Positions 6,380 through 62,600 are shown, counted from the stretch's first letter. The stretch: 64,000 nucleotides of DNA from Bacteroidales bacterium (GCA_045598885.1 JAZRVB010000139.1:14961-78960), one strand, 5' to 3'. Translations and numbers: made by a program. The notes: generated by a model not told the origin, from the letters alone.

Positions 6380-6413
6380 GAAGCATTGACAGCAATCAAT
6401 TGTAACTCCAATC

Positions 6414-6449
6414 GTAAATCCGTAAATAGTAAATAGTAAATAGTAAATA
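6414..6449. repeat. tandem heptamer repeat (GTAAATA)x4 plus one variant unit
   Basis: GTAAATC at 6414-6420, then four perfect GTAAATA units at 6422-6449. The array ends 4 nt before the GTG at 6454 and 31 nt before the ATG at 6481. Confidence 0.8.
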
Positions 6450-7534: not shown

Positions 7535-7565
7535 TTTGTCATGTGACTCTTTTTTCTTATTTTTG
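7535..7565 (+). promoter_or_regulatory. Bacteroidota sigma-A type promoter (-33 TTTG / -7 TAnnTTTG)
   Basis: TTTG at 7535-7538, a 19-nt spacer, then TATTTTTG at 7558-7565. The downstream ATG is at 7587, 21 nt away. Confidence 0.45.
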
Positions 7566-20247: not shown

Positions 20248-20258
20248 AATGTCCTCCT

Positions 20259-20290
20259 AATTCCTCACTCCTCACTCCTAACTCCTCACT
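20259..20290. repeat. 32-bp repeat copy 2 (intergenic, lepA to methyltransferase)
   Basis: Identical to 9121-9152. It ends 5 nt before the ATG at 20296. Related CTCCTCACT words also occur at 28666-28682. Confidence 0.9.
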
Positions 20291-21333: not shown

Positions 21334-22629
21334 ATGGAACATGTAATCCCTGCCTGGATGCTGATTCCTTTTGTAGTGATGCTCCTCTGCATCGCTATCC
21401 TCCCTCTTACCAAGCTGGAAGAGTGGTGGGAACACAACATCCACAAGCTCTACGTATCGCTCCTCTTGGGCGTACCTGTAGGCATCTGGCTCTGCTTTAA
21501 TGGCATGAGCCACGAGTTGGAGCATCAGATGATCTATGACTACGTGCCATTCATCCTCTTGCTCATGGCCCTTTTCGTCACCACCGGTGGCATCTGCATC
21601 AAGGGCGACCTCAAGGCCACACCGGCCATCAACACTACCATCCTTGGCCTGGGCTACATCCTTGCCTCATTCATGGGAACCACAGGTGCAGCCATGTTGC
21701 TCATCCGTCTGCTCATCCAGACCATCTCTGAGCGCAAGTACAAGGTTCACACCATCATGTTCTTTATCGCTACAGTAGCCAACTGTGGTGGTCTGCTTAC
21801 CCCACTGGGCGATCCACCGTTGTTCCTGCTCTTCCAGAAGGGTGCTCCATTCACCTGGTTCATGAACCTCATGCCAGAGTGGCTCGTAGCAGGTGCTCTC
21901 CTCCTCGGCTTGTACTATATGGTCGATCTCTATTACTTCAAGAAGGAGCCTATCGAGAATATCAAGGCCGACATCCGCAACCAGACCCGCATCCACATCT
22001 CTGGCTTGCTCAATGTATTCTGGCTTCTCTGCGTCATCGCTTCAACCATGTTCATCAACGCTACTTATATCCCAGCTATGGGTGAGCACGACGCACCATT
22101 CTACCTCAAGCTCCTCCGTGAGTGGGCATTCATCGCTATCATTATCGCCAGCATGGTCACCACCAAGAAGCATACCCGCAAGGAGAACAACTTCTCATGG
22201 ACCCCAATCCTCGAGGTTGCCTGCGTCTTCTGCGGTATCTTCGCTACCATGACCCCAGCGCTGATGTACCTGCAGCAGAACCCTCTGCCTGTCACCGAGC
22301 CTTGGCAGTTCGTCTATTGCACCGGCTGTCTCTCAGCCTTCCTTGACAATGCTCCTACCGCCATGGTCTTCCACGCTACCGCTACCACCCTACCAATGGC
22401 CGATGGTGCTATCGTAGCTGGTATCAGCGAGGTCATGCTCAAGGCTATCTCAATGGGTGCAGTATTCTTCGGAGCCCTCACCTACATTGGCAATGGTCCT
22501 AACTTCATGATTAAGTCTATCGCTGAGCAGTCAGGTATCAAGATGCCATCGTTCTTCGGCTACATGCTCAAGTTCTCTCTCATCTACTTCCTGCCTGTCT
22601 ACATCATCGTACAGCTTATTTTCTTCTAA
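21334..22629 (+). CDS. polytopic membrane transporter, Na+/H+ antiporter / ArsB-NhaD-CitMHS superfamily-like
   Basis: 431-aa highly hydrophobic ORF with more than 10 predicted TM segments. The family assignment comes from recollection of similar Bacteroidota 'sodium:proton antiporter' annotations and was not verified. Confidence 0.55.
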   Translation: MEHVIPAWMLIPFVVMLLCIAILPLTKLEEWWEHNIHKLYVSLLLGVPVGIWLCFNGMSHELEHQMIYDYVPFILLLMALFVTTGGICIKGDLKATPAINTTILGLGYILASFMGTTGAAMLLIRLLIQTISERKYKVHTIMFFIATVANCGGLLTPLGDPPLFLLFQKGAPFTWFMNLMPEWLVAGALLLGLYYMVDLYYFKKEPIENIKADIRNQTRIHISGLLNVFWLLCVIASTMFINATYIPAMGEHDAPFYLKLLREWAFIAIIIASMVTTKKHTRKENNFSWTPILEVACVFCGIFATMTPALMYLQQNPLPVTEPWQFVYCTGCLSAFLDNAPTAMVFHATATTLPMADGAIVAGISEVMLKAISMGAVFFGALTYIGNGPNFMIKSIAEQSGIKMPSFFGYMLKFSLIYFLPVYIIVQLIFF

Positions 22630-22696
22630 TCTATCCGGAAGAAAATATTCAAATAATCTCACATTGTGTCACTAAGACACAAATAGGAACGGAAAT

Positions 22697-22840
22697 ATGG
22701 CTTCGCGTTTTTACGAAGCCATATTTCTGTTTTTATTTATGGTTTCGTTCATGCACGAAGCCATAACCTGGTACCTATCTATGGTTTCGTTCATGCACGA
22801 AGCCACAACCTCGTACCCATCTATGGTTTCGCGTCAGAGG
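22697..22840. repeat. tandem hairpin array, 42-bp period, about 3.4 units
   Basis: Units start at 22697, 22739, 22781 and 22823 (ATGG[C/T]TTCG...CGAAGCCA[T/C]). Each unit holds a 9-bp stem. The 66-aa ORF 22697..22897 is a translation artefact of the repeat. Confidence 0.85.
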
Positions 22841-22858
22841 AATACCTATAAACAAAAT

Positions 22859-22884
22859 CTGGTGGACCTTTGCAGATCCACCAG
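22859..22884. terminator. hairpin between the convergent antiporter and rnfA genes
   Basis: CTGGTGGA (22859-22866) pairs with TCCACCAG (22877-22884) around a 10-nt loop. It is positioned to serve both converging transcripts. Confidence 0.5.
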
Positions 22885-22912
22885 ATGTAAAGATTGATTC
22901 GATACTATAATA

Positions 22913-23515
22913 TTAGCCAATACCGAAGATAGCCTTGAGAGTGTTGTCGATGCCAGAGAAGCCCATGAAAGCCATGGCAAGGAGACCTGCGGTGATGAGG
23001 GCAATAGGGGTTCCCTTCATGCCCTTAGGAAGGCTGGTGATCTCGAGCTGCTCGCGGATACCTGCGAAGAGGACCATAGCGAGGGTGAAGCCGAGAGCGG
23101 TAGCTACAGCGTATACTGCTGACTCAAGGATGTTGTACTCGAAGTTGATGACGTTGATGGCAACACCAAGGATAGTACAGTTGGTAGTGATCAATGGGAG
23201 GAATACACCGAGAGCTGCATAGAGCGATGGCATAGACTTCTTGAGGATGATCTCGACCATCTGTACGAGAGCAGCGATAACGAGGATGTAGACGATGGTC
23301 TGCATGAACTCGAGGCCTGCTGGTACGAGGATGCCGTAGTAGATAGGATAAGTCACCAAGGTAGCGATAAGCATAACGAATGCTACTGCCATACCCATGC
23401 CAGCTGCAGTGTCGATCTTCTTAGATACACCGAGGAATGGACAGATACCAAGGAACTGTGCCAGGACGATATTATTAACGAATATCGCGGCAATGATCAT
23501 AATAATATAACTCAT
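22913..23515 (-). CDS. rnfA: Rnf electron transport complex subunit A
   Basis: 200-aa polytopic membrane protein of the RnfA/NqrE type. Last gene of the rseC-rnfBCDGEA order. Confidence 0.9.
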   Translation of the reverse strand: MSYIIMIIAAIFVNNIVLAQFLGICPFLGVSKKIDTAAGMGMAVAFVMLIATLVTYPIYYGILVPAGLEFMQTIVYILVIAALVQMVEIILKKSMPSLYAALGVFLPLITTNCTILGVAINVINFEYNILESAVYAVATALGFTLAMVLFAGIREQLEITSLPKGMKGTPIALITAGLLAMAFMGFSGIDNTLKAIFGIG

Positions 23516-23531
23516 GATTCTGTATCTTTTA

Positions 23532-23654
23532 GTTTAGAGTTTAGAGATTAGAGTTTAGAGAAGTTAATTAGTTCTATAGGTTATTGGAAAACCAAAACAC
23601 ATAATAGCTCTTAACTTATTAACTACTCTCAACTATAAACTCTCAACACTAAAC
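23532..23654. repeat. long imperfect hairpin element filling the rnfE-rnfA spacer
   Basis: The arms 23532-23573 and 23613-23654 are complementary at 34 of 42 positions. They are built from GAGTTTAG-type words. The loop is about 39 nt. Confidence 0.7.
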
Positions 23655-28588: not shown

Positions 28589-28682
28589 CAGTTAGGAGTG
28601 AGGAGATAGGTGTTAGGAGTTATTCCTGCAACGTAAAATAAGCGCGTGAGGGGAAACACTCCAAACTCCTCACTCCTCACTG
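28589..28682. repeat. imperfect hairpin element in the rseC-rnfB spacer (AGGAGTGAGGAG words)
   Basis: The left arm CAGTTAGGAGTGAGGAG... starts at 28589 and the right arm ...CTCCTCACTCCTCACTG ends at 28682. The first 17 bp pair with 1 mismatch. The loop contains AGCGCGTGAGGGG. Confidence 0.65.
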
Positions 28683-32337: not shown

Positions 32338-32349
32338 AAAAACAAGGAT

Positions 32350-32390
32350 AAAAGTAAGGGGGTGAACGTTGCGTTCACCCCCTTACTTTT
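32350..32390. terminator. bidirectional intrinsic terminator (perfect 19-bp stem)
   Basis: AAAAGTAAGGGGGTGAACG (32350-32368), loop TTG, then CGTTCACCCCCTTACTTTT (32372-32390). The A-run and T-run flanks suit both convergent genes. It marks the 3' end of the pilin-like locus. Confidence 0.85.
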
Positions 32391-32391
32391 A

Positions 32392-34848
32392 TTATTGAAC
32401 CTTAGGATAGGTAGCTGGAGTATATATGAATTTATGTTCTGCGTTATAATGCTGCTTTAAGAACAGAATCTGCTCTTTGGTGAAATCATGACAATTAGTC
32501 TTCACATTATCCTTATCTTGAGCCACAATGGCATCAAGCCAATAGCCGAATATCTTGATTGCTTCATTCAGGCTGAAGTGATACTCAAACAATTTCCAGA
32601 CATTATCTGATAACAGACCTGTATCGCCAAAAACCAGAGCGGCCAATTGGGGTATTGACTGACCTTCATCTGTAATTTTCAATATATCCTCTATCACCAC
32701 TTGTCTCAAAGTCTTGCCTTGAGACGTATTGTAATCTGTATCATATACAAATACCCTGTCCGAATTGACAAAAGCATTGGATTGCATTACAGAGGTACTA
32801 AGCGGATAGCCAGACTTGTTAGGCTCCAACGTAGGCGTATGAGTAATCAGACTATTGTCAAAATAGCAGCTGAACATGATACTCTTGTTCGTACCATCAG
32901 TTCCATCGCCACGCTTACCGACCGTGGCATGGAGATTAGTACTTCCATCCAATGATGCAATCTCACCGCAATGGTAGCATGCCATAACCGTACCGTTATT
33001 GAATCCGACAAGGCCTCCGATGGTTCCACGGCCTTCTACCTTACCGATGTGAGCACATGCAATGATAAAGCTCTGATTGACACCTACAATACTACCCGTA
33101 TATTGCGCAGACATATCGGTCTCCTTCACGTCACCATCGATATAACAGCCACAGATCAGGCCTTTGTTCTCGTGGGCGACCACGCCACAACCCTGCACCT
33201 CCTTGACATTGCCGAAGTTCAGTTTGTCAATCACCGCATTCTCTCCGATTGTGTAGAAGAAATGCGCTCCATACAAATCATTGATATAGCGGCCACTACC
33301 CAAGAAGAATCCATTGAAAGGATGTGAAGCATCACCCACACCGATCCACGTCACACGCTTGGAGTCCTCTACATTCTTAGTTGGCTGCAAAGTGATATCG
33401 GCATCAAGTTTCACGAACTGATGCTCGAATGCCCTACCATTCTTCACCTCGTAAGCAAACGAAAGCAGCTGATCGGCGGTACAGATTAGGAAAGGATGAG
33501 CGGCCGAACCATCATTACCATAGATATCCACTATCTTACCACTGGTAGCGGTGTAGAGCCATGTAGCATCATCGGCCGTAGCCTTCGCGTCTCCCACAAT
33601 GGTAATTTTTTCACGACCAGTATACGAAAGATAAGTAGAATTCTTTCGAAGCGAACCTTCATCCGGGGAGTCATCATTCTGCCAAGACATGTATTCTGCT
33701 CCTACGGTCATCTTCTCATCCTTGTGGTTGAGGTTGACGTTGATCGAGGTGCAGTAGCCAGGGCGGAACTCCACATCCTTATCGAGTTTCAGAGTAGCTT
33801 TATAGTCTTTCTCCAATCGGGCTTCCTGGTTCGGATCGAGAGGATCAGGATACGACACTTTGAATGTCATTACCACCTCATTCTGCAAACCAGGGGCAAC
33901 GATACCATAAAAGGAGAATGTACGGCCGACACCCGTACCATGATATTCACGCGGCTGCCAGAGCTTCATTGTCTTCTTCTGGTTCCAGGCAGGGGCTTCT
34001 CCTCCCCAATCTGTAAATCCGTTGAGTATCGCCTGATCTCCAGCTTCAAGCGGAGCAGCCTCATATCCCTTATTATCCCATTTATACATGGTCGGCTGAT
34101 CCAGAAGTAACATATCGGTGACCTTGGTCTCAGCATCAGGGTCAGTACCCGTCGAAGAATAACCGGTAATGGTTACCGTCACACGTACGCTGGCCAGTCC
34201 GTGATGAAAGCGGATCCATGCCATCGCATCCTCGTTCTGCATCTCCGTGCTGTAGGTCAGGAGCAAGTCCTCCTTACGAAGCTTCTCGAGGTCATAAGGC
34301 TCAGGACGGTCAGTTCCGAGAGGGGAACTTGTATAGTCAATCATTTCGCTGGCAACCGCCGGATTGCCGATACTGCCATAGTAGACATCTTTCTCTGTGT
34401 CATGATGCCAGTCAAAGCCAGATGCTTCTGCCGTCTTAGCATCCTCATGAGGCAGAATATACCCGATGAAAGTATGCGGCTCAGAGCCATCGCTCCAGAA
34501 GATGTCATTGGTTGGTATCTTACGCTTCCATGACACATCGTCGCCATTGATTTCACTGTCGTAATGCACATTCTGATAACTAAACGTCGGACGGATAGGA
34601 CGCTTAGTACGCTCGATCATGGTAAAAATGATTTCATCGTTCGGCATGAACTTATATTTGCCGATAGAATCGATAAGAGGAGTCACAGCTCGGGTGCTGC
34701 CACCATTATCGATGACAGCATGGATGGCTCGCAGCACCATCGGATCGCAGTATTCGGGATGATTAGCGATTTCCGTCTCATTGGTACATGAAACGAATCC
34801 CAGAAGCAATGCTAATATAATATAATATGTATGTCTCAAACTGTTCAT
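32392..34848 (-). CDS. fimbrillin-like lipoprotein with C-terminal GLUG/beta-helix-like domain (818 aa)
   Basis: Lipobox GFVSC|TNE. STRAV motif with Arg 32 aa after the Cys. Strand motif IRFHHGLASVRVTV. The C-terminal half has PFNGFFLGSGRYINDL, GTIGGLVGFNNGTVMACY and a periodic Cys ladder. Confidence 0.7.
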   Translation of the reverse strand: MNSLRHTYYIILALLLGFVSCTNETEIANHPEYCDPMVLRAIHAVIDNGGSTRAVTPLIDSIGKYKFMPNDEIIFTMIERTKRPIRPTFSYQNVHYDSEINGDDVSWKRKIPTNDIFWSDGSEPHTFIGYILPHEDAKTAEASGFDWHHDTEKDVYYGSIGNPAVASEMIDYTSSPLGTDRPEPYDLEKLRKEDLLLTYSTEMQNEDAMAWIRFHHGLASVRVTVTITGYSSTGTDPDAETKVTDMLLLDQPTMYKWDNKGYEAAPLEAGDQAILNGFTDWGGEAPAWNQKKTMKLWQPREYHGTGVGRTFSFYGIVAPGLQNEVVMTFKVSYPDPLDPNQEARLEKDYKATLKLDKDVEFRPGYCTSINVNLNHKDEKMTVGAEYMSWQNDDSPDEGSLRKNSTYLSYTGREKITIVGDAKATADDATWLYTATSGKIVDIYGNDGSAAHPFLICTADQLLSFAYEVKNGRAFEHQFVKLDADITLQPTKNVEDSKRVTWIGVGDASHPFNGFFLGSGRYINDLYGAHFFYTIGENAVIDKLNFGNVKEVQGCGVVAHENKGLICGCYIDGDVKETDMSAQYTGSIVGVNQSFIIACAHIGKVEGRGTIGGLVGFNNGTVMACYHCGEIASLDGSTNLHATVGKRGDGTDGTNKSIMFSCYFDNSLITHTPTLEPNKSGYPLSTSVMQSNAFVNSDRVFVYDTDYNTSQGKTLRQVVIEDILKITDEGQSIPQLAALVFGDTGLLSDNVWKLFEYHFSLNEAIKIFGYWLDAIVAQDKDNVKTNCHDFTKEQILFLKQHYNAEHKFIYTPATYPKVQ

Positions 34849-46287: not shown

Positions 46288-46324
46288 AACTCTTTAACTT
46301 TTTAACTCTTTAACTTTTTAACTT
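46288..46324. repeat. tandem 16-bp repeat (AACTCTTTAACTTTTT x2.3)
   Basis: Perfect units at 46288-46303 and 46304-46319, plus a partial unit at 46320-46324. It lies directly 5' of the GTG start at 46286 on the coding (minus) strand and fills most of the 51-bp spacer. Confidence 0.85.
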
Positions 46325-50934: not shown

Positions 50935-53427
50935 TTACTTGATTTGTACGTTATCATCGCCAGCAATTACATTCTCCCAATCGAGAATCGTAACTGCCAG
51001 ATCATATACACCCTTCTTCTTCAAAGTGAACGTATAGGTATATTTGAAGTTCGGGTACCAACGATCGATCTTATATTTACCCGAGTTCGCTTCGGTTTCA
51101 AGATATGGATTGACGATGTTGTTCGAAGTCACAGCAGTACCACCTGTTGTAGCAGCTATCAGATTCATCATGTTGATCTCATACTTGTTTTCATCTGGCG
51201 TAGTGATTACCAAAACTACATCATCCAGAGCCTGAGGGATGGCGCCATATTTACTCCAGGTGATAACTGAGGCATCAGGTGCAGGATGGGCTTCGAAAGG
51301 ATAGCTTGCGACTGGCGTATTCGCCATCACCAAGCCATTACCCATCAACAGCTTACCAGTCGTAGCAATGTTCTTGAACTCAAGGGTTGTGCAATTACCG
51401 ACAGTTCCATTGCCTAAGCTGACCCCCGCATCACCAGCTTCCGTCTTTACTATAATGGTGACCTCGCTCATCATGTGGAACATTATCAGCTTGATCTGTT
51501 CTTCAGTAGGACCAATGGCTTTGTAGATCTGATGCTTGTCTTTATTCTCTGATTTGGTAAAATCAATATTATCCAAACCATCAAAACCATTTAATGTAGG
51601 GCCATAGTTCCATTTGAAAGATCCTGGCACATTATCTTTTTTATCATCAAGCATAGGCGCACCCCAGCAGATGTCCTTGTAAGTCTCACCATGCTCAAGA
51701 GACAGATAATCATAATCTATGTCATCTGTTGCCTGCACAATTGAAGGAACAGTAGATTTTGGCGTAGTTGTTCCATCATGAGCTTCACACAAAGCGCGGA
51801 AATGATAAAAATTCTTGTTATTATCCCAGAACCAGTTAGTTGACCAATGGTCTGTAACATAAGAAGGAGTCAGACCCTCCTCATTATAACCTTTCGTCCA
51901 ATTATAAGATGCAAATTCATCATTAATAGCACCTGTATTATTGTCTGAAGCGCGATAAAGAGAGAACTTATCTGTTGACTTCAGGCCATCTCCGCGCTCC
52001 TCCAGCATAAGTTCAATGCGAGCATTAGACGGAGTGGTATTGATTGCACTTACCGTCTCCCAATCTACAATCTGAGCTGAAACCGACTCGATCGCCTTCT
52101 TGCCGATCGTAAACGAGAACTCATAATTTATACCAGCCTTGAGCTTAGTGCGGTCTGTTAAGATAGTGGTCTTTACACCCCCATCGTCACAATTTGCAGC
52201 ATTGCCAGCCAAAGCATCCAACAGATACTTCTTTGAGAGTTTGTAATCGTTACCTGCAATAGAAATAGTAAGTGCGTCTGACACACTGCTTTCATTGAGA
52301 TCATCTCCAGGAATTACGAAAGCCAGAAGCGTATAAGCGGGCTTCCCTGCTTCATTGACTGGTGTAGGATCGGTATTGCAGATCGAACTCCAATTGCCAG
52401 TAGCAATATCCGACCATTCTCCTGTCTTGATATTCAGATAACCTTGCTTATTGAAACCCTTCATGGCAATATTCTTGCCCGTATCGAACAAGAAATTCGT
52501 ATTGTCGAAACCACTGCCCCAATAAAGCTTGATAGTAATAAGCGACATGGCACGACGGAAAAGCAATTGGCCTTTATCAAACTTTCCCGTTGACTTATTG
52601 CTAAACTTCAGGACTTCGTCATCTGTAATATTGTTGCTATAGCAGAGATCGTCTTTGTAAAGCGTAGAGATGTAGGTCTGTGAAGAATATGACGGATGCA
52701 TACCAATCGTCCATTTCATCAATGAACCATTTGACTGTTCTGCTCCAATCTTATAATCAATATCTCCAGTGTACCACTGATTTGCGCCATTACTGGCGAT
52801 TTTATTAATCTTCTGATTCCATGGCGCACCACTAGGAAGAATCGTATTGGCTACACAAACACCATATACACTAATCTGAGCATCACGGGCATAAGCATCA
52901 TCCCAATATCTCCAGCTTCCTTCAAAAGCCTTGGTATCCGTAACCGTTTTAGAACCAGTCAATTCATTGGCAGGATCTTCGTAAGTCTGCGAACAATTAT
53001 TCTCGTCATTAAAGCTTATCGCAGATGCTTTCTGTGTATCTGTCCATTTCGTTGGATCTGCATTTAAGTTAGAAGGTGCCGTACCGCTACCCTTAGCCAG
53101 ACCATAAGTAACGGCATAAGTGTCAGCTCTTCCTAGAGTTGAGCCATCTTGACTCACCAGCAACATGTGCAGACGAGTATCCTTCTCAAATGCAGTAATC
53201 TTGCCCTCACCATCGATCACGACAGCACGAGTGAGAGGACGCTCACCAAGATCCTGTCTGCTGGTAGCCGTCAGTTCGATCGGCGTCTTCACCACCTCAG
53301 GTTTTGGTTCAGGATCCGGAGTCGGAGGAGTAACGATATCTTCCACACCGCCTTTATCAGCACAGGCTCCGAGAGCCAATGCTGACGTGAGGGTAAAGAG
53401 ATTGATATATAACAGATGTTTTTGCAT
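50935..53427 (-). CDS. double-module fimbrillin-like lipoprotein (830 aa)
   Basis: Lipobox LALGAC|ADK. PLTRAV motif. Module 1 has LLFRRAMSLITIKL and ends at AQIVDWETV. Module 2 has LIMFHMMSEVTIIV and ends at VTILDWENV. Confidence 0.75.
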   Translation of the reverse strand: MQKHLLYINLFTLTSALALGACADKGGVEDIVTPPTPDPEPKPEVVKTPIELTATSRQDLGERPLTRAVVIDGEGKITAFEKDTRLHMLLVSQDGSTLGRADTYAVTYGLAKGSGTAPSNLNADPTKWTDTQKASAISFNDENNCSQTYEDPANELTGSKTVTDTKAFEGSWRYWDDAYARDAQISVYGVCVANTILPSGAPWNQKINKIASNGANQWYTGDIDYKIGAEQSNGSLMKWTIGMHPSYSSQTYISTLYKDDLCYSNNITDDEVLKFSNKSTGKFDKGQLLFRRAMSLITIKLYWGSGFDNTNFLFDTGKNIAMKGFNKQGYLNIKTGEWSDIATGNWSSICNTDPTPVNEAGKPAYTLLAFVIPGDDLNESSVSDALTISIAGNDYKLSKKYLLDALAGNAANCDDGGVKTTILTDRTKLKAGINYEFSFTIGKKAIESVSAQIVDWETVSAINTTPSNARIELMLEERGDGLKSTDKFSLYRASDNNTGAINDEFASYNWTKGYNEEGLTPSYVTDHWSTNWFWDNNKNFYHFRALCEAHDGTTTPKSTVPSIVQATDDIDYDYLSLEHGETYKDICWGAPMLDDKKDNVPGSFKWNYGPTLNGFDGLDNIDFTKSENKDKHQIYKAIGPTEEQIKLIMFHMMSEVTIIVKTEAGDAGVSLGNGTVGNCTTLEFKNIATTGKLLMGNGLVMANTPVASYPFEAHPAPDASVITWSKYGAIPQALDDVVLVITTPDENKYEINMMNLIAATTGGTAVTSNNIVNPYLETEANSGKYKIDRWYPNFKYTYTFTLKKKGVYDLAVTILDWENVIAGDDNVQIK

Positions 53428-53492
53428 CTTATATATTTATTATTGTTTATTGTTTTATTGCTTTGAATCCGTGAAACGGTATCTTTTGAGCA

Positions 53493-53618
53493 GGAACGGA
53501 CGTCTTGAGTGCACGGCGTCCATTCTTTGTCGCGGGAATGGACAGCCTGAGTCCACGGCGTCCTTTCTTTGCAGCGGGAATGGACATTCTGAGTCCACGG
53601 CGTCCATTCCTTGATCGC
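53493..53618. repeat. tandem hairpin array, 42-bp period, 3 units
   Basis: Units start at 53493, 53535 and 53577 (GGAA[C/T]GGAC..16 nt..GTCC[A/T]TTC). The clearest, unit 3, pairs GGAATGGAC with GTCCATTCC. Located in the 278-bp gap between the 800-aa and 830-aa genes. Confidence 0.85.
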
Positions 53619-53652
53619 GGAAGCTGACATCGCGTACGTGTTGTCAGCTTCC
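53619..53652 (-). terminator. perfect 11-bp hairpin adjoining the 42-bp array (attenuator/terminator or RNA-stability element)
   Basis: GGAAGCTGACA (53619-53629), a 12-nt loop, then TGTCAGCTTCC (53642-53652). In the sense direction it is the first structure after the 800-aa gene's stop at 53706. Confidence 0.45.
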
Positions 53653-53705
53653 ACGAGTCAGGATCGGACAAACTGAGATCAGTTGTACGATCGACAAGTT
53701 GTTTT

Positions 53706-56108
53706 TTAGCTTTCGAGGTCAATCTCTGTACCAGCACCAACGACAGTAACCCAGTCAGCCACGGTACAGGTAATATTCTCGATACCCTTCTTGGTGATCT
53801 TGAAGGTATACTTGTAGGTGTGATTTGGATACCAGCGGGTGATCTTGTCACCTTCTTCTTGATTACGATCACTTGTCACACTATCGGCCACAATATCGCT
53901 GAGCTTTGTAATGACATAATACTGGTTCTCATCGCTAGTGGTGATAGTGATACCGACATACTGAGTATCAGTTCCGGTTCCACGAGTCAAAGTCTGAGGA
54001 ATCACTGCACAGGTGAAAGGTTTGGTCAAATCCTTAGCTGTACCATGATCAGCAGCCCAGTAATCTGTACTTGAAGGTGCAGTCGTTGCTTGTTCTGCAT
54101 CTGCAGCAACTGCAGCTGGAGTAATCAAGCCTGTACCCATATCAACGGTAGCCGAAGTTGCAAGATTGGTAATCTTGATGGTAGCGCCCGAAAGATCGAC
54201 CTTATCGTCACCTGTACTTGTCTTGAGGACAATCTCAAGATTGCTCATCATGTGAAGCTCCTGAATCTTGATATCACTCTCTGTTGAGGTTACGCCCTTG
54301 TGGATATTATCTGCGAAACCCTTATCCTCATCATAGGCAAGATCCGTTCCAGTTGCCATCGGAGCACCCCAATGATAATCCTTTTTAGTGGCATCTGCAG
54401 TCATAGTGAAGTAGCTCTTTTTATCAGTTGTATTTTGGATGTTCTTATCCGTTTCAGTTCCGGTAGCACCTTCATTAGCTGCCAGATTATTCAGTGTACG
54501 GAAGTGATAAGCAGTCTTATTGTTATCGTAGTACCAATTGGTCTTATACTTATTAATCTCATTTCCGTCTTTGTCTGTCATCTTTGAAATAGTAGCTACA
54601 CCCTCGGTCTTATAGTCACCGCTCCAATTTACTGCAGAATAATCGTCAGTTGTATTAATTCCACCTGCCAATTCCTCTGCCAGACGATAGAAGTTGATCT
54701 CAGTGCAGTTAGTACCCGTTGGATTCAAGAATGTAAACTCTACGTGAGAGTTATCCATACTCTCCTCAGCAGCTTCAACGACAACCCAATCTGCCAAGGT
54801 AGCGGTGATGTTCTCAATCTTAGCCTTGTTGAGGACGATGGTGAACTTATAGTGCTTACCCTGCTCCATGGTGATAGGATCTGTCTGGCCAACCATATCG
54901 CCATCACCAGTGTCCTTGGTTCCATTACCATTTGCATCATAGGTCAAAGCATCAAACAGGTTATCCTGCGTGATGTAATAGGTATTATCGTCGATGGTAA
55001 ACTCAAAGACATTGGTCTTATCGCCATCGGTCAGGACATAACCTGGGAGTACCTGGGCCTGGTAGGTGCCAGCGGCGGTAGTTCCAGATGACGTTTTGGC
55101 TATCTTGGCAATATCACCTTTGGCCACAGCATCCTCTCCATAGCTCCAGGTACCGGTCTTGATGTCGAGAGTACCCTTGACATACATTTTTTTGAGCGTA
55201 ATATTAGTACCAGAGGCGAAAGCGAAAGAACCCGAAAAGTTCTCGGTTGACTGCGTCAGAGTGATAGAAATACGGGTAAGCGCATGATTAAAGACAAGGT
55301 GACCCTTATCAAATTTACCAGAAGAGGTCTTATCGGCAGGAGTTTTCAAGGCAATTCTCAGCTGGCCGTCCTTATGAGTTGTATTTCCGGTTTCCTGAGG
55401 CTCATATTTCTCTTCTGTGAAATTCCATACATATCGACCATCCTTGCCTAATGTAGCATCCTGCTGAATATTATTGCTATAGCAAAGATCCTCACTGTCA
55501 ATAGAGGTTGTAGTCTGCTCGGTAGTCTTGACAATCCATTCGATATTATTATTCGATATTTTGTCCGATGTATCTACATGCCAGTTTGGATTATTAGTAG
55601 AGCTGACACTCTCGCCACCCCAATTGACCAAATTCTCAAGAGTTACATCATTGTTGGAAGGCGAAGTTGACTGAGGTACTGCTACTGCATATACAGAAAT
55701 ATTGGCATAACGGCCGAATGCATCATCCCAATAACGGATATAACTATTATCATTACTGCCCGCTGCATAATTCACTACAGAGTATTTTGAGTCATCTTCG
55801 CCCGTTTTCTCAACTCCGGCAGTAAGCACAGTTTTCGTTGTTCGCTTATCGGAACCAGAAGTAGGGGCAACTCCTACCTCGCTCTTGAAACTTTCAAATC
55901 GAGCCACGATCTGCGTCGCAGCAGTGAATCCGGCACGTGTCTGTGGAGTTGCACCAGCAGCGCCCATATCGCTGACGGTGAATGCGATGGCCTCCTTCTG
56001 GCCTGAAGGAGCTTCTTCCTCGATGAAATCAGAGACTTTGTCTTCATCGGAGCAAGCGACTGCGGTCATCGCGGTGGCTATGAATAATGGATAGAGATAC
56101 TTTTTCAT
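53706..56108 (-). CDS. double-module fimbrillin-like lipoprotein (800 aa)
   Basis: Lipobox TAVAC|SDE. PQTRAG motif. Module 1 has LVFNHALTRISITL and ends at ATLADWVVV. Module 2 has IQELHMMSNLEIVL and ends at CTVADWVTV. Confidence 0.75.
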   Translation of the reverse strand: MKKYLYPLFIATAMTAVACSDEDKVSDFIEEEAPSGQKEAIAFTVSDMGAAGATPQTRAGFTAATQIVARFESFKSEVGVAPTSGSDKRTTKTVLTAGVEKTGEDDSKYSVVNYAAGSNDNSYIRYWDDAFGRYANISVYAVAVPQSTSPSNNDVTLENLVNWGGESVSSTNNPNWHVDTSDKISNNNIEWIVKTTEQTTTSIDSEDLCYSNNIQQDATLGKDGRYVWNFTEEKYEPQETGNTTHKDGQLRIALKTPADKTSSGKFDKGHLVFNHALTRISITLTQSTENFSGSFAFASGTNITLKKMYVKGTLDIKTGTWSYGEDAVAKGDIAKIAKTSSGTTAAGTYQAQVLPGYVLTDGDKTNVFEFTIDDNTYYITQDNLFDALTYDANGNGTKDTGDGDMVGQTDPITMEQGKHYKFTIVLNKAKIENITATLADWVVVEAAEESMDNSHVEFTFLNPTGTNCTEINFYRLAEELAGGINTTDDYSAVNWSGDYKTEGVATISKMTDKDGNEINKYKTNWYYDNNKTAYHFRTLNNLAANEGATGTETDKNIQNTTDKKSYFTMTADATKKDYHWGAPMATGTDLAYDEDKGFADNIHKGVTSTESDIKIQELHMMSNLEIVLKTSTGDDKVDLSGATIKITNLATSATVDMGTGLITPAAVAADAEQATTAPSSTDYWAADHGTAKDLTKPFTCAVIPQTLTRGTGTDTQYVGITITTSDENQYYVITKLSDIVADSVTSDRNQEEGDKITRWYPNHTYKYTFKITKKGIENITCTVADWVTVVGAGTEIDLES

Positions 56109-56141: not shown

Positions 56142-57443
56142 TTAGTTCTGAAGACTTATATCGATCGGAGCACCTGTGATTTCGTCCCATGGGGTCTCGA
56201 CACATGTAAAGAGGATGCCCTTAGAACCATCGACGATCGGGTACTGTGGAATCGGAGTCGTAAACCTGCCGATGATAATATAGTAGGTATAGAAATGATT
56301 CATCTCCCAGTTATAGGTATCCTGATGCGTTTCGTCGTTCAGTACAATCGGAAGATCCTCTATCACCGTATATTCGTCCATGAACTTATCGTGCCACTGG
56401 TCGTCTTCGAGCTTTCCGACAATTTTCATCGATACAGAAAGCTGCACGCCATCCTGTGGAATCTGTGCCAGACCCAATGGACACTCGAAGAAGTAGGCCT
56501 TCTCTCGTGAGTTGGCATCGACGAGGTCATTGTTATGCAGTACAGCGTCTGGGGTCAATTCGAGTAACGTAGTGCCATCGTAGGCCGGGCTATGGAATTG
56601 GCCTCCCATCAGTGATCCTTGGGTCAAGTCGGCCTGATATTGAGCCGAGGTGACAAACTGAGAGCTACGAACCTTGATCTTGACGTCGAAGACCTCATGA
56701 CCATCGCATTCCTCTCCCAGATCGGGGCAATAGATGGCAAAGCGGACTTTGGCGTTGAGATGATGGAATGGCAGCGCTACGCTGCGAATCTTAGACAGGC
56801 CCTTCGAATCGTTGATCTCCTTTGGTCCCGTCTTATCTGTATTCTGTGCCAGGAGGTCAAAATCATGGCCCTCATTGTTGCGCTCGACCTGTGCCACCAT
56901 GCATGGCTCGGCTACGGCATCGGTGGGAGTGGTACTACCATCGCAGGATGTCTGATACTGGAATGGCGTTGGCACCTTGAGCAACATGTCGGTGAGCGTG
57001 AAACCCGGGGTCAGAGCATTGCTGGCAGTGAGCGGAGCCGGTGAGACGGCGTGGAAGCGATAGGGATAGGCGCTGGCATCCCAGTACTTCTCGAACTGTT
57101 CCTGATAGAACTGATGCGAGCTCTCTGCGCTGATATAGTTCCAGCTGACGGTCTCGCCATACCATGAGTCATACTGCTCGTAATTGACCTCGTATTGCGG
57201 CATGACCTCCTGCTGTCCGGCCTCACCGAACTTCTTATAGCAGCTGACCATGAATCCCTGTTTGAGCAGATTCGGGATCGAATAGTCAGTTCGCGTCTGG
57301 TAGTTGTCGCTAACATTGCTGAAGCGCATGGGGTCTTGGGGCTCGACGATAGGCTTCACCTCCTCTATCACGTTATCAGAAGAGCAGGCTGCCATCATCA
57401 AGGCCGACGATGCAAGCAGATATGTCAGGATACGTCTTGTCAT
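56142..57443 (-). CDS. fimbrillin-like lipoprotein, single module (433 aa)
   Basis: Lipobox LMMAAC|SSD. YQTRTD motif. LPFHHLNAKVRFAI strand. C-terminal CVETPWDEI. Confidence 0.7.
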   Translation of the reverse strand: MTRRILTYLLASSALMMAACSSDNVIEEVKPIVEPQDPMRFSNVSDNYQTRTDYSIPNLLKQGFMVSCYKKFGEAGQQEVMPQYEVNYEQYDSWYGETVSWNYISAESSHQFYQEQFEKYWDASAYPYRFHAVSPAPLTASNALTPGFTLTDMLLKVPTPFQYQTSCDGSTTPTDAVAEPCMVAQVERNNEGHDFDLLAQNTDKTGPKEINDSKGLSKIRSVALPFHHLNAKVRFAIYCPDLGEECDGHEVFDVKIKVRSSQFVTSAQYQADLTQGSLMGGQFHSPAYDGTTLLELTPDAVLHNNDLVDANSREKAYFFECPLGLAQIPQDGVQLSVSMKIVGKLEDDQWHDKFMDEYTVIEDLPIVLNDETHQDTYNWEMNHFYTYYIIIGRFTTPIPQYPIVDGSKGILFTCVETPWDEITGAPIDISLQN

Positions 57444-57504: not shown

Positions 57505-57531
57505 CCAAAGGGGGAGTCGAACCCCCTTTGG
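57505..57531 (-). terminator. perfect 10-bp GC-rich hairpin after the 811-aa pilin-like gene
   Basis: CCAAAGGGGG (57505-57514), a 7-nt loop, then CCCCCTTTGG (57522-57531). It lies 18 nt downstream of the stop at 57549 in the sense direction. No strong U-tract. Confidence 0.55.
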
Positions 57532-57548
57532 CCTATAATAACGGGGGA

Positions 57549-59984
57549 TTAATCCTGAACCTCGAAGGTTGCAGTCTTATCGCCATTAGTGATTGTATAG
57601 TTGCCTGCAGCACAATCAGCAGCAATTGTGATAGTACCAGCAGAAGCATCTACAGTGATACCTGGTTTACCAGAAATAGCAGAATAGTCAACATCAGCGA
57701 CATTGCTTACACCATTCTTGGTAGCAGTGACTGTGATAACAGGAGAATCATCATTATCAACAACAGGCTTGTTGATAGACAAAGTATAAACATCCTTCAC
57801 CTCAAGTTTCTGCACATATTCTGTCACAGAACCGCCAAGGTTAACTGTCTGGGTAATGGTGTAGATACCAGGAGCAACAGTTGAAGCCACATTGAATACA
57901 CCTGAACCCAAAGTAATACCCGTAGCAGGATTACCTGCTGCATCCTTAATAACGACCTGAACATTTGCGTCAGATGGTGCAGAAGCTGCAGTAGTATATG
58001 CAACACTGCTACCAGCCGCATCAAGGTCAACAGATCCTGAAGCGAGCTTAAAGCTGAGATCAATAACAGAGAAGCTTGCATAACAGGTAGTATTCTCTGA
58101 AGTAGTGTAAGCTACCTGATAATCACCTGGGAATGCATCCTTAGCAACAGTAACTTTCTTGGTATCCTTGTCTACAGTCACAGCATTCATCTTGTCTACA
58201 GGAGTTCCTGCAGGATAAACGATTGAGAAGGTACCAGCAGGAGTTGTCTCAGCAGCGCCATTCATAGTAGTGCTAACATTAAGTGTGGTAGCTGCCTCTC
58301 CGTTGGTAGCAATATTGGCAGTGCTAACAGATACTCCGAAACTACCAATAACGGTGAATGTTGCAGTATAGGTCTTAGGATAATTAACGCCAGCTACACT
58401 ACTCAATGTATAAGTGATCGTATAATCACCAGGTGCAGTGGTAGCAGCAATAGTTACCTTACCATCAGCTGAAATGGTCAATCCTCCAGAAACAGTCCAA
58501 GAGCCTGCTGGAACATCTGCAGCTGCGGCCGCTGCATTATCCTTATAGATCTTTGCAGATACAGTACGAGCATCCTCGTCACCAGATGTCAAAACGGTGT
58601 TCTTGTCAAGGACAACACTATAGTTCTTCGTCTCAGTGCTACCAGGTGTAGTATTGCCATCAGAAATGATATAGTCACCAGTAGTATTCTCAATCCAGTC
58701 TTCAACGGTGCAGTTATCAAAGATGATTGGATAGAGAGCCTCCTCATCATCAATCGTTGGATCGTTAGGATCGATTGTAGGGAAATTAGGATCTTCTGGA
58801 TCCATAGTGGTACCATTACTATCCTTGGTAATCTTGAAGATATAAGTATAGTGGGTATTCATAGCCCAGTTGGTATAGTCAACAGGGACATAAGCAGTAG
58901 CGTTGCGTACTACGATGCGCTCACCAGTGGTAGAGGTCAACTCATACGACACATGGAAAGTGAAACCTGTAGTATTGCTCTTAGGAATTGCATAATAGGT
59001 AGAAGGTGAAGGTGAAGCCTCTACACGAGTGGTACCAATCTGAAGAGCGGTTGGGACATAGAAGTTGAGAGCTTCCTGGGTAGTAGTTCCTGCAGACGGA
59101 TCAATAACAGGAGCATTAACATCAGTGTAATCGACAACTACACCACTTGACTTAAAATACTCACCCTGAGTGTTTGGAGTACCAGCAATAGCAGGAGCAG
59201 CAGAAACGCCATAATCATCAGTCAGATCAATAATCTTAACTGAGTAGCCTGGAATATCCTCCCAGAACTTGATGTTAACTTTGGCATTGAGACGCTTGAA
59301 ACTGAGTGGGACATCCTTACCATAATCTGCCATAGCGACCTCTGTAGCAGCAACCATAAACTCGCTTGACTCAGGAACTGTGTTATCATGAACCATGGTA
59401 GCGACCATTGATCCATCAGGGATGGTCAGTTTATGATCACTATTGGTGTAGGTTGCGGTTTCAGCGCTACCACTATTGATATATGGAGCATAAGCATAGA
59501 AAGTGGTTTTAGGAGCAGACTTATCCCAATAACGGAGGTACTGGTTAGGGACATTTGACATATACTCAGGCTGATTCTTGGTATAGTAACCTTCAGATCC
59601 GGTGTAGCTATACTCTGCAGAACCGAGCATCTCGTATGCCCACATTGAAGCACCATTGACTGCACCAGGAACATCTCCCAAAGTGGTCTGATTGCTAGCT
59701 GTCATGTAATAACCCTTCTTGTTGGTTTCATCCATGTAACCAACGAGGTAGTTCGCCATGATGTTGTTGGTGGCATCTGTGCTCTTATAAGCAAAAACGC
59801 CAAAGTTGTAATGACCTGCATTCTGAAGAGGAATGGCACGTGTCAGGTTTTTCTGGCTTGTCACGAAGCGGATAGGAGACTCGTTGGTACCGCCAGCGCC
59901 AGAGACGCTGGTGTCAACAAGCTCGTCGCTTGCACAGCTTGCTAAAAGGGCGAGCGAAGCTGCAAAGAATAAACTTTTCTTCAT
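57549..59984 (-). CDS. fimbrillin-like lipoprotein with four C-terminal Ig-like repeats (811 aa)
   Basis: Lipobox ALLASC|ASD. NLTRAI motif. LSFKRLNAKVNIKF strand. The module ends at CTVEDW (aa 425-430). Four repeats of about 80-95 aa follow (aa 455-811), each ending in a G-x-Y-x-[IV]-x-[YTQN] strand. Confidence 0.75.
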   Translation of the reverse strand: MKKSLFFAASLALLASCASDELVDTSVSGAGGTNESPIRFVTSQKNLTRAIPLQNAGHYNFGVFAYKSTDATNNIMANYLVGYMDETNKKGYYMTASNQTTLGDVPGAVNGASMWAYEMLGSAEYSYTGSEGYYTKNQPEYMSNVPNQYLRYWDKSAPKTTFYAYAPYINSGSAETATYTNSDHKLTIPDGSMVATMVHDNTVPESSEFMVAATEVAMADYGKDVPLSFKRLNAKVNIKFWEDIPGYSVKIIDLTDDYGVSAAPAIAGTPNTQGEYFKSSGVVVDYTDVNAPVIDPSAGTTTQEALNFYVPTALQIGTTRVEASPSPSTYYAIPKSNTTGFTFHVSYELTSTTGERIVVRNATAYVPVDYTNWAMNTHYTYIFKITKDSNGTTMDPEDPNFPTIDPNDPTIDDEEALYPIIFDNCTVEDWIENTTGDYIISDGNTTPGSTETKNYSVVLDKNTVLTSGDEDARTVSAKIYKDNAAAAAADVPAGSWTVSGGLTISADGKVTIAATTAPGDYTITYTLSSVAGVNYPKTYTATFTVIGSFGVSVSTANIATNGEAATTLNVSTTMNGAAETTPAGTFSIVYPAGTPVDKMNAVTVDKDTKKVTVAKDAFPGDYQVAYTTSENTTCYASFSVIDLSFKLASGSVDLDAAGSSVAYTTAASAPSDANVQVVIKDAAGNPATGITLGSGVFNVASTVAPGIYTITQTVNLGGSVTEYVQKLEVKDVYTLSINKPVVDNDDSPVITVTATKNGVSNVADVDYSAISGKPGITVDASAGTITIAADCAAGNYTITNGDKTATFEVQD

Positions 59985-61373: not shown

Positions 61374-62600
61374 TTAATTATGTAAAGGTACTTCATAAAC
61401 CACCTCGTCATAATCCTCGACGGTCGGGACGAAGAGTGATCCTGATCCACCCGGGTTAGGCCCTGGGTCAGGTATCGGAAGATCATTGCAGTCGATGATC
61501 ACAGTGATGACACCGCCATGAGACTGCTCGCGGCACTGCTTGGTAACATCGTACTGCAGCGTCTGCTCAACGCCGTTGCGGAACTTGACATCGACCATCA
61601 GATAATTTGGAAGGTCCGTTCGCGAACCGCTGTAATTATGATCTGGAGCATCATTAAACGACAGCATATCGCAGAGGCCAAAGGTAGTGAACTTACCACC
61701 AATGATCTGACAGTCCTGATCGCGCACCGGATAGCCATACTTCATAGATTCCTTGTAACGGGTGTTGAAGTAGACAATGACCGGATCGTTTTTGGTGTGA
61801 CCTGTATTGACATTCGTACCACTTGAAAATGCCGTAAGGGCAGCGTTTCCAGTAGTACCGACAACTCGGCCATCGTTATTGAAGAAAATCACCTGCACCA
61901 GATAGATGAATGCCAACGGATTGAGGTGACAGTCAATATGACGGACCCAGCAATGCTCTATTTCATCGTAGTAATCATAGTCTCGCATATCCTGCGAGAT
62001 GTAGATGTCTGGAGTATTGGCTCCGTAGAAAACCTCCGGCTGATTGTAGAGACCCGTTACGGCATTGGTACTGCTCGAACCAGCCTGCTCGTTCTCCGAA
62101 GCAAAAAGTCGGGTCAAGCCACGCGACACAGAAGTCGTAGCTGTGATTGTATCAAGGCGCGAGTCATCGATCTTCAAAACCTGCGTGCCATCCTCAGAGT
62201 CAATATTGCTCCAGATAAGCAGGTCATAATAGCCGAACTGGTATGTACGACGGAAACGATTGCCGAAAACGGTGAATGCATCGACGTTGGTGTGCGGAGC
62301 GCCTGGCTGATCACCTAGATAGTATCGTCGAACCTCATAATTAGTTGGGACAGGGTAGGCAATTGGACCCCAAAGCGTTGAGTCGACATCGTCCCAGCCA
62401 TAGTACCAGCGATACTTCCATTCTGGATCAATATCCCATACTACATCAATATCAGTAATAATATCCGGGAAGTCCATGACCACATCCTGTGCAGGGAGTT
62501 TCAAAGGCGGCTCGATGCAGGAGTTGAGAGTTAACAGTGAACAGTTAACAGTTAACAACGACAGCAGACAGAGGATGTTATTTAGTAATTTCTTTTTCAT
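61374..62600 (-). CDS. DUF5119-like lipoprotein (possible FimB/Mfa2-type pilus anchor or accessory protein)
   Basis: Lipobox LTLNSC|IEP. No TR[AST] propeptide motif at the position seen in the 13 pilin-like genes. Trp/Tyr-rich N-terminus (WKYRWYYGWDD) and NQPEVFYG resemble what I recall of DUF5119. Overlaps the upstream gene by 4 bp. Confidence 0.55.
   Translation of the reverse strand: MKKKLLNNILCLLSLLTVNCSLLTLNSCIEPPLKLPAQDVVMDFPDIITDIDVVWDIDPEWKYRWYYGWDDVDSTLWGPIAYPVPTNYEVRRYYLGDQPGAPHTNVDAFTVFGNRFRRTYQFGYYDLLIWSNIDSEDGTQVLKIDDSRLDTITATTSVSRGLTRLFASENEQAGSSSTNAVTGLYNQPEVFYGANTPDIYISQDMRDYDYYDEIEHCWVRHIDCHLNPLAFIYLVQVIFFNNDGRVVGTTGNAALTAFSSGTNVNTGHTKNDPVIVYFNTRYKESMKYGYPVRDQDCQIIGGKFTTFGLCDMLSFNDAPDHNYSGSRTDLPNYLMVDVKFRNGVEQTLQYDVTKQCREQSHGGVITVIIDCNDLPIPDPGPNPGGSGSLFVPTVEDYDEVVYEVPLHN

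Follow-up and report, generated by a model that had tools for sequence, protein, structure and literature searches.

Why does a compact locus of pilus-like genes contain one long non-coding gap, and what do the hairpins that fill this gap do? The question is raised by a locus in the window, i.e., the whole 64-kb stretch of DNA that was analyzed, which belongs to the MAG of an uncultured gut bacterium of the Bacteroidales and is part of an NCBI contig of 150 kb. The locus consists of 15 co-oriented genes on the minus strand, which run from about position 63967 down to 32392, six of them upstream and nine downstream of a spacer of 278 nt (53428-53705). All other intergenic gaps of the locus are 6-105 nt long. 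The next gaps in size are 105, 51, and 33 nt, and thus a preliminary description of this DNA was right to single out the spacer as the largest gap, and it also counted the nine downstream genes correctly.

To our knowledge, the ways in which Bacteroidales adjust the relative output of genes within very long operons are very poorly understood, and we know of few characterized post-transcriptional elements in this phylum, which lacks Shine-Dalgarno-led translation. If the spacer is functional, it would be a compact example of operon punctuation inside a type V pilus-like locus of 30 kb and 15 genes, tunable by the copy number of a repeat. If it has no function, it is an ordinary minisatellite.

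The Spacer and Its Flanking Genes

Gene A (53706-56108, minus strand) is the sixth gene of the block as seen within the window and encodes an Mfa-like fimbrillin lipoprotein of 800 aa (ORF; Pfam PF13149 Mfa_like_1, E 2.9e-23). Gene B (50935-53427, minus strand), the first of the nine genes 3' of the spacer, encodes another Mfa-like fimbrillin lipoprotein, with 830 aa (ORF; PF13149, E 1.6e-14), and the same Pfam family is matched by eight other proteins tested from the locus. A strong canonical terminator at 32348-32392 closes the locus. The pattern of identities among orthologs characterizes gene A as a recombining mosaic, and therefore its protein identity is a poor clock and the spacer lies in a recombinogenic neighborhood. 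The part of the spacer adjacent to gene B is a leader (53428-53492, minus strand), which comprises an 8-nt linker, a weak 4-bp hairpin (CCGT/ACGG), and then an A-rich, structure-free stretch up to the ATG of gene B; this A-rich leader is unpaired in the MFE fold. The LepA protein encoded in the window clusters at 90% identity with proteins from horse and rumen MAGs.

Five Hairpins in a 42-nt Register

When the sense strand is laid out in rows of 42 nt, the spacer array is seen to consist of five head-to-tail hairpins of 34 nt, each accompanied by an 8-nt linker. The array reaches from just past the stop codon of gene A, from which it is separated by 12 nt, to the A-rich leader, and its units start in register at 53493, 53535, 53577, 53619, and 53661. 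Three of these units, at 53493, 53535, and 53577, had been described before, in the orientation that is antisense to the flanking minus-strand genes. They were recovered by TRF (53506-53620, period 42, 2.7 copies, 84% matches, score 172) and by a repeat search that found three 48-nt copies at 42/42 spacing, but the true number of units is five. The perfect hairpin at 53619-53652, which had been taken to adjoin the array, indeed has an 11-bp stem and a 12-nt loop, but it is the in-register fourth unit: repeat family D2 adds it to the three copies at spacings of 42, 42, and 43. The fifth, degenerate hairpin at 53661-53694 is likewise in register and goes beyond the earlier count.

In the direction of the sense strand, the minus-strand array starts with the degenerate hairpin W0 (53661-53694), in which outer GATCG/CGATC pairs are combined with an inner ACAACTGA/TCAGTTTGT helix (-11.9 kcal/mol on the sense strand); it has a 10-bp stem with one mismatch at 53662-53692. 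W1 (53619-53652) is the unit with the perfect 11-bp stem (GGAAGCTGACA/TGTCAGCTTCC) and the 12-nt loop (-18.1 kcal/mol), and its length of 34 nt and its register are equal to those of the other units. In W2 (53577-53610), a perfect 9-bp stem (GGAATGGAC/GTCCATTCC) encloses a loop of 16 nt (-14.7 kcal/mol), and this hairpin matches a covariance model of the unit with an E-value of 1e-8. W3 (53535-53568; AGAAAGGAC/GTCCATTCC) contains one A.A and one terminal A.C mismatch (-12.6 kcal/mol), and W4 (53493-53526; AGAATGGAC/GTCCGTTCC) contains a U.G wobble on the sense strand (-12.7 kcal/mol), so that the single hairpins range from about -12 to -18 kcal/mol on the sense strand. The stem of about 9 bp and the 16-nt loop given in the preliminary description hold in outline, and the stem of the unit at 53577-53610 is perfect, but the unit at 53535 has one T.T mismatch and the unit at 53493 one C.A mismatch. 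The loop of the latter was misread: it is TTGAGTGCACGG and not CTGAGTCCACGG, which differ at two positions.

Folding of the whole spacer revealed strong structure on both strands when compared with dinucleotide shuffles, with -96.8 kcal/mol (z -7.5) for the sense strand and -107.3 kcal/mol (z -5.4) for the antisense strand. The autocorrelation of the spacer has a sharp and sole peak at lag 42 (0.58), and the 16-nt core occurs three times with at most one mismatch, versus 0.43 occurrences expected at up to three mismatches. Non-coding stem-loops in tandem, specific to this locus, make up the spacer.

Coding Potential, Known RNAs, Terminators, and Promoters

A coding repeat or a small peptide was considered for a 50-aa sense ORF with a 14-aa repeat (53455-53607), and was rejected, because the corresponding array of the related contig L002 (see below) has stops in all six frames. 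The open frames of the window are closed in relatives, and no conserved frame runs through the repeats, as it would in MIRU-like coding repeats. The ORFs predicted across the gap are spurious translations of the repeat, as had been proposed. A search of the window against Rfam yielded nothing at gathering thresholds, and in E-value mode only sub-threshold miRNA and sRNA models at chance level were obtained for the spacer (12-21 bits, E 0.15-5.3). ARAGORN detected neither a tRNA nor a tmRNA. A CRISPR array is also at variance with the architecture, since the 8-nt linkers are themselves repeated, the whole unit is repeated, and unique spacers are absent.

As the largest gap of the locus, filled with hairpins of -12 to -18 kcal/mol each, the spacer might be expected to be a cluster of canonical terminators or to harbor a promoter, and thereby to divide the locus into two independent operons. 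However, no U-tract follows any unit on the sense strand, and a scan with the terminator consensus found no terminator in the spacer. Canonical terminators with a hairpin and a T-run are present elsewhere in the window (22688-22740, 22857-22886, and 32348-32392). The lack of a U-tract makes canonical termination in the array unlikely. A promoter is not indicated either: the Bacteroidetes -7 box TAnnTTTG is absent from both strands of the spacer, in contrast to evident 5' regions elsewhere in the window, which contain such boxes (e.g., at 7558, 14627, 14784, and 29166), and matches to sigma-70-type promoters in the spacer are at chance level. A division of the locus by terminators or a promoter in the spacer is therefore, in our view, very improbable.

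A 19-nt inverted repeat (53387-53405/53719-53737) brackets the spacer, which led to the consideration of an invertible promoter. The repeat has no counterpart in the related contigs L002 and L003, and was treated as a chance occurrence.

No Dispersed Copies of the Unit in the Sequences Searched

The preliminary description had also allowed for a REP-like insertion without a function. More generally, the array might be a mobile repeat of the REP/BIME, BOX, or MITE type that was inserted at this site by chance. Its imperfect, GC-rich palindromes have a REP-like size and an intercistronic location, and contigs of relatives break at the array. Yet mobile repeats are dispersed, and no further copy of the unit was found in the 64-kb window (pattern and covariance model) or, beyond the arrays themselves, in 630 kb of related loci (covariance model, 92 loci). 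The core pattern had a single match in 185,579 species genomes, a chance occurrence in Streptomyces, and zero matches in the JGI metagenomes.

REPs are characterized by unpaired GTAG or CGTC tags and by clusters in inverted orientation, i.e., head-to-head or tail-to-tail, while head-to-tail pairs are rare; the loops of the CGTC class have 4-5 nt (PMC3733652). All five units of the array are oriented head-to-tail, an unpaired GTAG or CGTC tag is absent, CGTCC occurs exclusively within the stem, and the loops have 12-16 nt. In addition, the array was found at the orthologous position in relatives, as expected for an inherited element. These results lend no support to the REP-like alternative, and we regard any mobile repeat inserted here by chance as extremely improbable.

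The covariance model used for these searches was built from 11 units. It remained below significance on W1 (E 0.8) and on a second array at 22.7 kb in the window (E 1.3), and it detected nothing in L002. Descent of the three array types from one ancestor is thus not demonstrated.

The Array in Related Contigs

Five related metagenomic contigs (L002, L003, L094, L005, and L006) contain a 42-nt hairpin array in the orthologous spacer, downstream of the ortholog of gene A. In four of them, all but L002, the array consists of the same diverging unit family as in the window. L003 (62% identity of gene A, spacer of 357 nt) has 7-8 units, and its last unit and leader are homologous to those of the window. 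L094 (56% identity, spacer of 315 nt) has six units, which are more heterogeneous, with a lag-42 autocorrelation of 0.66, and little of the pairing is left in two middle units. The 3' half of W4 (AAGACGTCCGTTCC) is homologous to the last unit of both contigs, and both possess an equivalent A-rich leader. L005 (67% identity) and L006 (65% identity) end 63 nt and 91 nt past the stop codon, respectively, inside the first units of the array, which is to be expected when short-read assembly meets a tandem repeat. The array therefore breaks short-read assemblies of these loci. L002 (78% identity, spacer of 291 nt) is different: it contains five near-perfect 24-bp palindromes (TTAACACCNGGTACCNGGTGTTAA), which are exactly 42 nt apart and have no sequence likeness to the array of the window. 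L004 (56% identity) has a gap of 19 nt and no array, from which it follows that the array is dispensable in some lineages.

The array is not a general feature of fimbrillin loci. No hairpin array was found in 80 distant loci from rumen-type metagenomes (about 490 kb, 30-41% identity), in which the sole 42-nt periods reported by TRF were doublings of a 21-nt repeat. Within the group of related contigs, comparison of copy numbers, as had been suggested for this spacer, uncovered five units in the window, five in L002, 7-8 in L003, and six in L094. Head-to-tail tandem units whose number varies between related genomes are what defines a minisatellite or VNTR, and the central units are homogenized, while the edge units are degenerate. 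It follows from this comparison that the array is inherited at one intercistronic position within one clade, with the register and the hairpins kept and the copy number and the sequence changing.

These features fit a serious rival explanation, a neutral or selfish minisatellite, in which slippage or unequal exchange duplicated a 42-nt hairpin segment in a tolerant spacer and gene expression is not affected at all. Homogenized internal and degenerate edge units are typical of minisatellite dynamics, stems have decayed in L094, L004 lacks the spacer, and the locus is recombinogenic and mosaic; slippage alone can maintain tandem arrays, and a function is not required for this. On the other hand, a spacer of 280-360 bp has been kept in place across five diverged contigs while the other gaps are 6-105 nt long, against the usual deletion bias. 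The hairpins and the exact 42-nt register have survived the full replacement of the sequence in L002, and the A-rich leader stays clear of the array. Conservation of the position together with turnover of the sequence is moderately surprising, and a neutral origin is plausible. As an explanation of the spacer, however, we consider neutrality to be rather unlikely.

Pairing and Strand

In the array each arm could pair with either of its neighboring arms. At the boundaries between unit types, co-variation is confined to the partners across the 12-16-nt loop, and no co-variation was found at these boundaries for a pairing across the 8-nt linker. This is exemplified by W1 (GGAAGCTGA/TCAGCTTCC) and W2 (GGAATGGAC/GTCCATTCC), the partner arms of which co-vary: the two units differ at four stem positions on both arms, and all of these differences are compensating. 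Pairs were counted in ungapped units, because the MAFFT alignment A2 misplaced W1. In the ungapped alignment of 11 units, 80.8% of the cells pair, whereas shuffling gave 73.3% and slid controls did not exceed 58%, and three of the nine pairs have changes on both sides. A comparison of the orthologous units X4 of L003 and U3 of L094 revealed one double change from G-C to A-U and one change from G-C to G.U. Arms pair with their own partners at a mean of 7.1 of 9 positions and with arms of other units at 6.0 of 9. For the stems, the covariation is genuine but modest in strength, which is explained by a GGAA...TTCC core that is conserved in the arms and by the non-independence of units within one array.

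The hairpins of the antisense strand are equally or more stable than those of the sense strand in 21 of 24 units. This follows from the A+C-rich and G-poor composition of the sense strand, the GC skew of which is -0.08 to -0.17 in the array and positive in the flanking genes. The numbers of G.U pairs and A.C mismatches are balanced when L002 is included. The comparison of the two strands thus speaks neither for a special role of the sense strand nor, given its composition, for one of the antisense strand.

Pairing of comparable quality without a clear strand asymmetry would also be expected if the array acted as DNA. Palindromes that are 42 bp, i.e., four helical turns, apart lie on one face of the duplex, and they could be phased sites for a dimeric regulator or a nucleoid protein, which might serve an internal promoter or the topology of the nine-gene block. 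The near-perfect 24-bp palindromes of L002 resemble operators. However, the half-sites in the window are separated by loops of 12-16 nt, and the spacer contains neither a sigma-70 nor a Bacteroidetes promoter consensus. The period of the arrays is also relevant for this explanation.

A Second Array and the 42-nt Period

A second 42-nt array is located at 22697-22838 on the plus strand, between convergent genes, with units at 22697, 22739, 22781, and 22823 (TRF period 42, 2.3 copies). Its first unit is the canonical intrinsic terminator of a CitMHS transporter gene. The geometry is 9-8-9-16, i.e., a 9-bp stem with an 8-nt loop and a T-rich tail of 16 nt, which adds up to 42 nt. Units 2-4 are copies in register in which the T-run has been lost. 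Relatives whose transporter is 93-96% identical lack the array and possess one unrelated terminator instead, which indicates a recent local tandem duplication. The second array is an example of how a hairpin array can arise from a terminator-like hairpin. Such a recent local copy of a terminator, absent from relatives with nearly identical flanking protein, is a further argument in favor of a neutral minisatellite also in the pilin-like locus.

Among the non-coding tandem repeats with periods of 20 nt or more in all fetched sequence, those that contain a hairpin have, without exception, units of exactly 42 nt. This period is common to three unrelated unit sequences, the family of the window, L003, and L094, the palindrome of L002, and the array at 22.7 kb, although their stem-loops have different lengths of 24, 26, and 34 nt. 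Autocorrelation did not uncover a 7-nt sub-period, which was of interest because 42 equals 6 x 7 and the genome is rich in heptamer repeats. The recurring period is a concrete anomaly, but with two or three independent cases it may be a coincidence.

That the period is conserved rather than the geometry of the hairpins would agree with phased sites on DNA. Nevertheless, the three array types are unrelated in sequence, and thus no single DNA-binding specificity fits all of them, and a promoter is not expected between the convergent gene ends that flank the array at 22.7 kb. Taken together with the loops and the missing promoter consensus, an action of the array as a DNA element is improbable.

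A more far-reaching idea is that period-locked hairpin arrays represent a distinct, lineage-specific type of operon punctuation in these uncultured Bacteroidales. In this case the period itself would be measured or selected, and evolution could adjust the ratio of the pilus-like proteins encoded upstream to those encoded downstream by changing the copy number. The period might then act as a ruler, either for a protein that oligomerizes along the RNA or via the phasing of four helical turns on the DNA. This idea is speculative, and we regard it as decidedly improbable.

A Putative Decay Barrier or Attenuator

The explanation that we tentatively favor is that the array, which evolves fast but is conserved in position, acts as a series of stem-loops in the sense transcript and forms a decay barrier or a partial attenuator between the six upstream and the nine downstream genes. 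We hold this to be possible and close to, though short of, probable. The mechanism would start with transcription of the array within a long polycistronic mRNA for pilin-like proteins from the minus strand. Co-transcription is plausible, because the genes are co-oriented with gaps of 6-105 nt, the spacer contains no TAnnTTTG box, and a terminator is located at the end of the locus. In such an mRNA the GC-rich hairpins without U-tracts would impede 3'-to-5' exonucleolytic decay, and they might in addition be a weak pause or attenuation site for RNA polymerase. As a result, transcript levels would differ between the six-gene segment that ends with gene A and the nine genes whose expression requires read-through, while the A-rich, unstructured leader past the array would keep gene B translatable. 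The array itself evolves in the mode of a minisatellite: internal units are duplicated and homogenized, edge units decay, and the copy number moves between about five and eight, while the position, the 42-nt register, and the potential to form hairpins persist through the turnover.

The preliminary description had proposed that the structured block terminates, attenuates, or stabilizes transcripts. Attenuation and stabilization are compatible with the present results and gain somewhat in strength from the retention of the array in five contigs, the absence of a -7 box, and the A-rich leader, but canonical termination is unlikely without a U-tract. That the block sets the stoichiometry between the upstream and the downstream genes, as also proposed there, is an inference. 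The structural features of a stabilizing stem-loop are present: the cistrons are co-oriented, the sense-strand hairpins have -12 to -18 kcal/mol, and no promoter was detected above chance level. The proposed effect on decay or attenuation follows the logic established for intercistronic stem-loops elsewhere, and as an analogy it should be regarded as tentative.

Comparison with Known Systems

Intercistronic stem-loops without a U-tract stabilize the upstream segments of operons, for example, of malEFG, puf, and many E. coli operons (Dar and Sorek, 2018, PMC5927463). The array shares with the REP/BIME elements between malE and malF of E. coli and between hisJ and hisQ of Salmonella, and with the puf element of Rhodobacter, that it is GC-rich, lacks a U-tract, and is situated between co-oriented genes; for these elements a block of 3'-5' decay and unequal levels of the cistrons have been proposed. 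REPs, however, are scattered over the genome in tens to thousands of copies, bear the GTAG or CGTC tag, and alternate in orientation (PMC3733652), whereas the array has a unique sequence, is strictly head-to-tail, and has a fixed 42-nt period and loops of 12-16 nt. With respect to its putative function, the array most resembles intercistronic decay barriers of the REP/BIME or puf type.

Like the array, the hairpins of chaperone-usher systems lie within pilus operons, downstream of a gene that encodes a structural component of the pilus. In the chaperone-usher pilus operons papA, fanC/K99, and fim, stem-loop attenuators follow the gene for the major subunit and are thought to set the stoichiometry of the subunits. 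However, these are single hairpins or terminators in Proteobacteria and belong to unrelated pilus systems, whereas the array is periodic with five units and is found in a type V (Mfa-like) locus of Bacteroidales, after the sixth of at least 15 large paralogous genes. The account of the papBA operon given in PMC5927463 supports this comparison.

The evolutionary behavior of the array resembles that of MIRU-type intercistronic minisatellites. The MIRU-VNTRs (mycobacterial interspersed repetitive units) are also direct tandem repeats, of 40-100 bp, that are located between the cistrons of operons and vary in copy number between strains (Supply, 1997; reviewed in PMC3184786). They differ in that they occupy about 40-50 loci per genome and contain small ORFs that overlap the flanking genes (PMC3184786), while the array is restricted to a single locus, is based on hairpins, and has stops in all frames in L002. 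The BOX (45-nt boxB) and SPRITE elements of pneumococci are likewise modular, with tandem units of about 45 nt and stem-loops predicted for their RNA, and SPRITE resembles a terminator (PMC3184786), a feature that recalls the terminator-derived array at 22.7 kb. Both are dispersed, MITE-like families with more than 100 copies and with terminal modules, and the array has neither the dispersal nor the terminal modules. BrickBuilt of Porphyromonas gingivalis is, like the array, a minisatellite without spacers in Bacteroidales, but its 23-nt units lie inside a MITE with inverted-repeat ends at multiple loci and have no likeness to the array in sequence or architecture (PMC4596501).

The array thus falls outside the definitions of REP/BIME, BOX/MITE, CRISPR, intrinsic terminators, and coding repeats. 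A literature search returned nothing relevant on 42-bp hairpin repeats in Bacteroidetes or on terminators and read-through in type V pilus operons. What appears to be new here is a single-locus, head-to-tail, period-locked hairpin minisatellite in a type V pilus-like operon.

A further intercistronic hairpin in the same operon, at 57505-57531, is conserved and nearly identical in four relatives. It adds plausibility to the idea of punctuation by RNA structure, and it suggests that the mRNA of the pilin locus is punctuated by RNA structures. The hairpin also bears a likeness to the minihelix formed by the acceptor and T-arm of tRNAs.

A Conserved Hairpin and a Terminator in the Pilin Locus

The 105-nt gap between the pilin-operon genes 57549..59984 and 56142..57443 contains a perfect 10-bp hairpin on the minus strand (window 57505-57531), with the sequence CCAAAGGGGG-TTCGACT-CCCCCTTTGG. 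Counterparts with almost invariant sequence are present in four related metagenomic contigs, i.e., L002 (3870-3896), L003 (4579-4607), L094 (1695-1723), and L006 (198-226). The inner part of the hairpin resembles a tRNA T-arm, which is stacked on a 5-bp "acceptor" stem, resulting in a tRNA-like minihelix. Neither ARAGORN nor Rfam made a call for it. The hairpin may be a processing signal of the RNase P/Z type in the pilin mRNA. Another conserved hairpin, GGAGCTCCAGTACGGTACTGACTCC, is located 3' of it, just ahead of the next start codon.

The end of the pilin locus is marked by a perfect 21-bp hairpin (32348-32392), which has an A-run on one side and a T-run on the other and is situated between the last pilin-like gene (minus strand) and a convergent plus-strand gene. 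It is predicted to be a strong bidirectional intrinsic terminator.

A Second 42-nt Array

A second hairpin array with a 42-nt period (22697-22838, plus strand) lies in the gap between the convergent genes 21334..22629 (+) and 22913..23515 (-). Its first unit is the terminator of the gene for the CitMHS transporter, a canonical one comprising a hairpin and a T-run, and units 2-4 are copies in register that lack the T-run. The relatives L091-L093, whose protein is 93-96% identical, lack the array, which therefore arose by a recent local duplication.

Gene A and the Spacer

When the fimbrillin lipoprotein gene A (53706-56108) is compared with and among L002, L003, L005, and L006 in steps of 150 nt, the pairwise DNA identity along the gene swings from about 56% to 96-100%, exemplified by L003 versus L005 and L005 versus L006. 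These jumps indicate mosaic alleles shuffled through recombination, as expected of variable surface proteins. A 19-nt inverted repeat (53387-53405/53719-53737; 16 of 19 positions complementary) has its arms inside both coding regions and brackets the entire spacer between gene A and gene B. As neither L002 nor L003 contains a counterpart, the repeat is probably due to chance rather than an invertible-promoter switch.

Short Repeats

TAACTGT-type heptamers (MKKKLLNNILCLLSLLTVNCSLLTLNSC...) are present in the signal-peptide coding region of the pilin-operon lipoprotein gene 61374..62600 (62529-62557, minus strand) and at L002 52-105, with about 4 versus about 7.7 copies. A 7-nt unit within a reading frame is a classic arrangement for slipped-strand phase variation.

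Further short direct repeats, heptamers and one octamer, occur at 6410-6449, 9124-9153, 20254-20290, 23531-23560 (-), 28590-28622 (-), 28657-28681, and 46288-46324 (-). Their units are AATAGTA, CTCCTCA/CTCCTAA (at three places), CTAAACT, CCTAACT, and AAAAAGTT. They resemble the unexplained TAACTGA-type heptamer repeats reported for Beggiatoaceae and Cyanobacteria as well as a few Bacteroidetes, where they lie 5' of start codons (PMC4679880).

In the related Bacteroidales genome L091, direct and inverted arrays of 9-10-nt units (TCCCTTAAGA/AAGGGATA) are located at 829-877 (also at L092 2478-2526), 10244-10388, and 12795-12861, in intergenic regions near P-II and ammonium-transporter genes. They resemble clustered binding sites.
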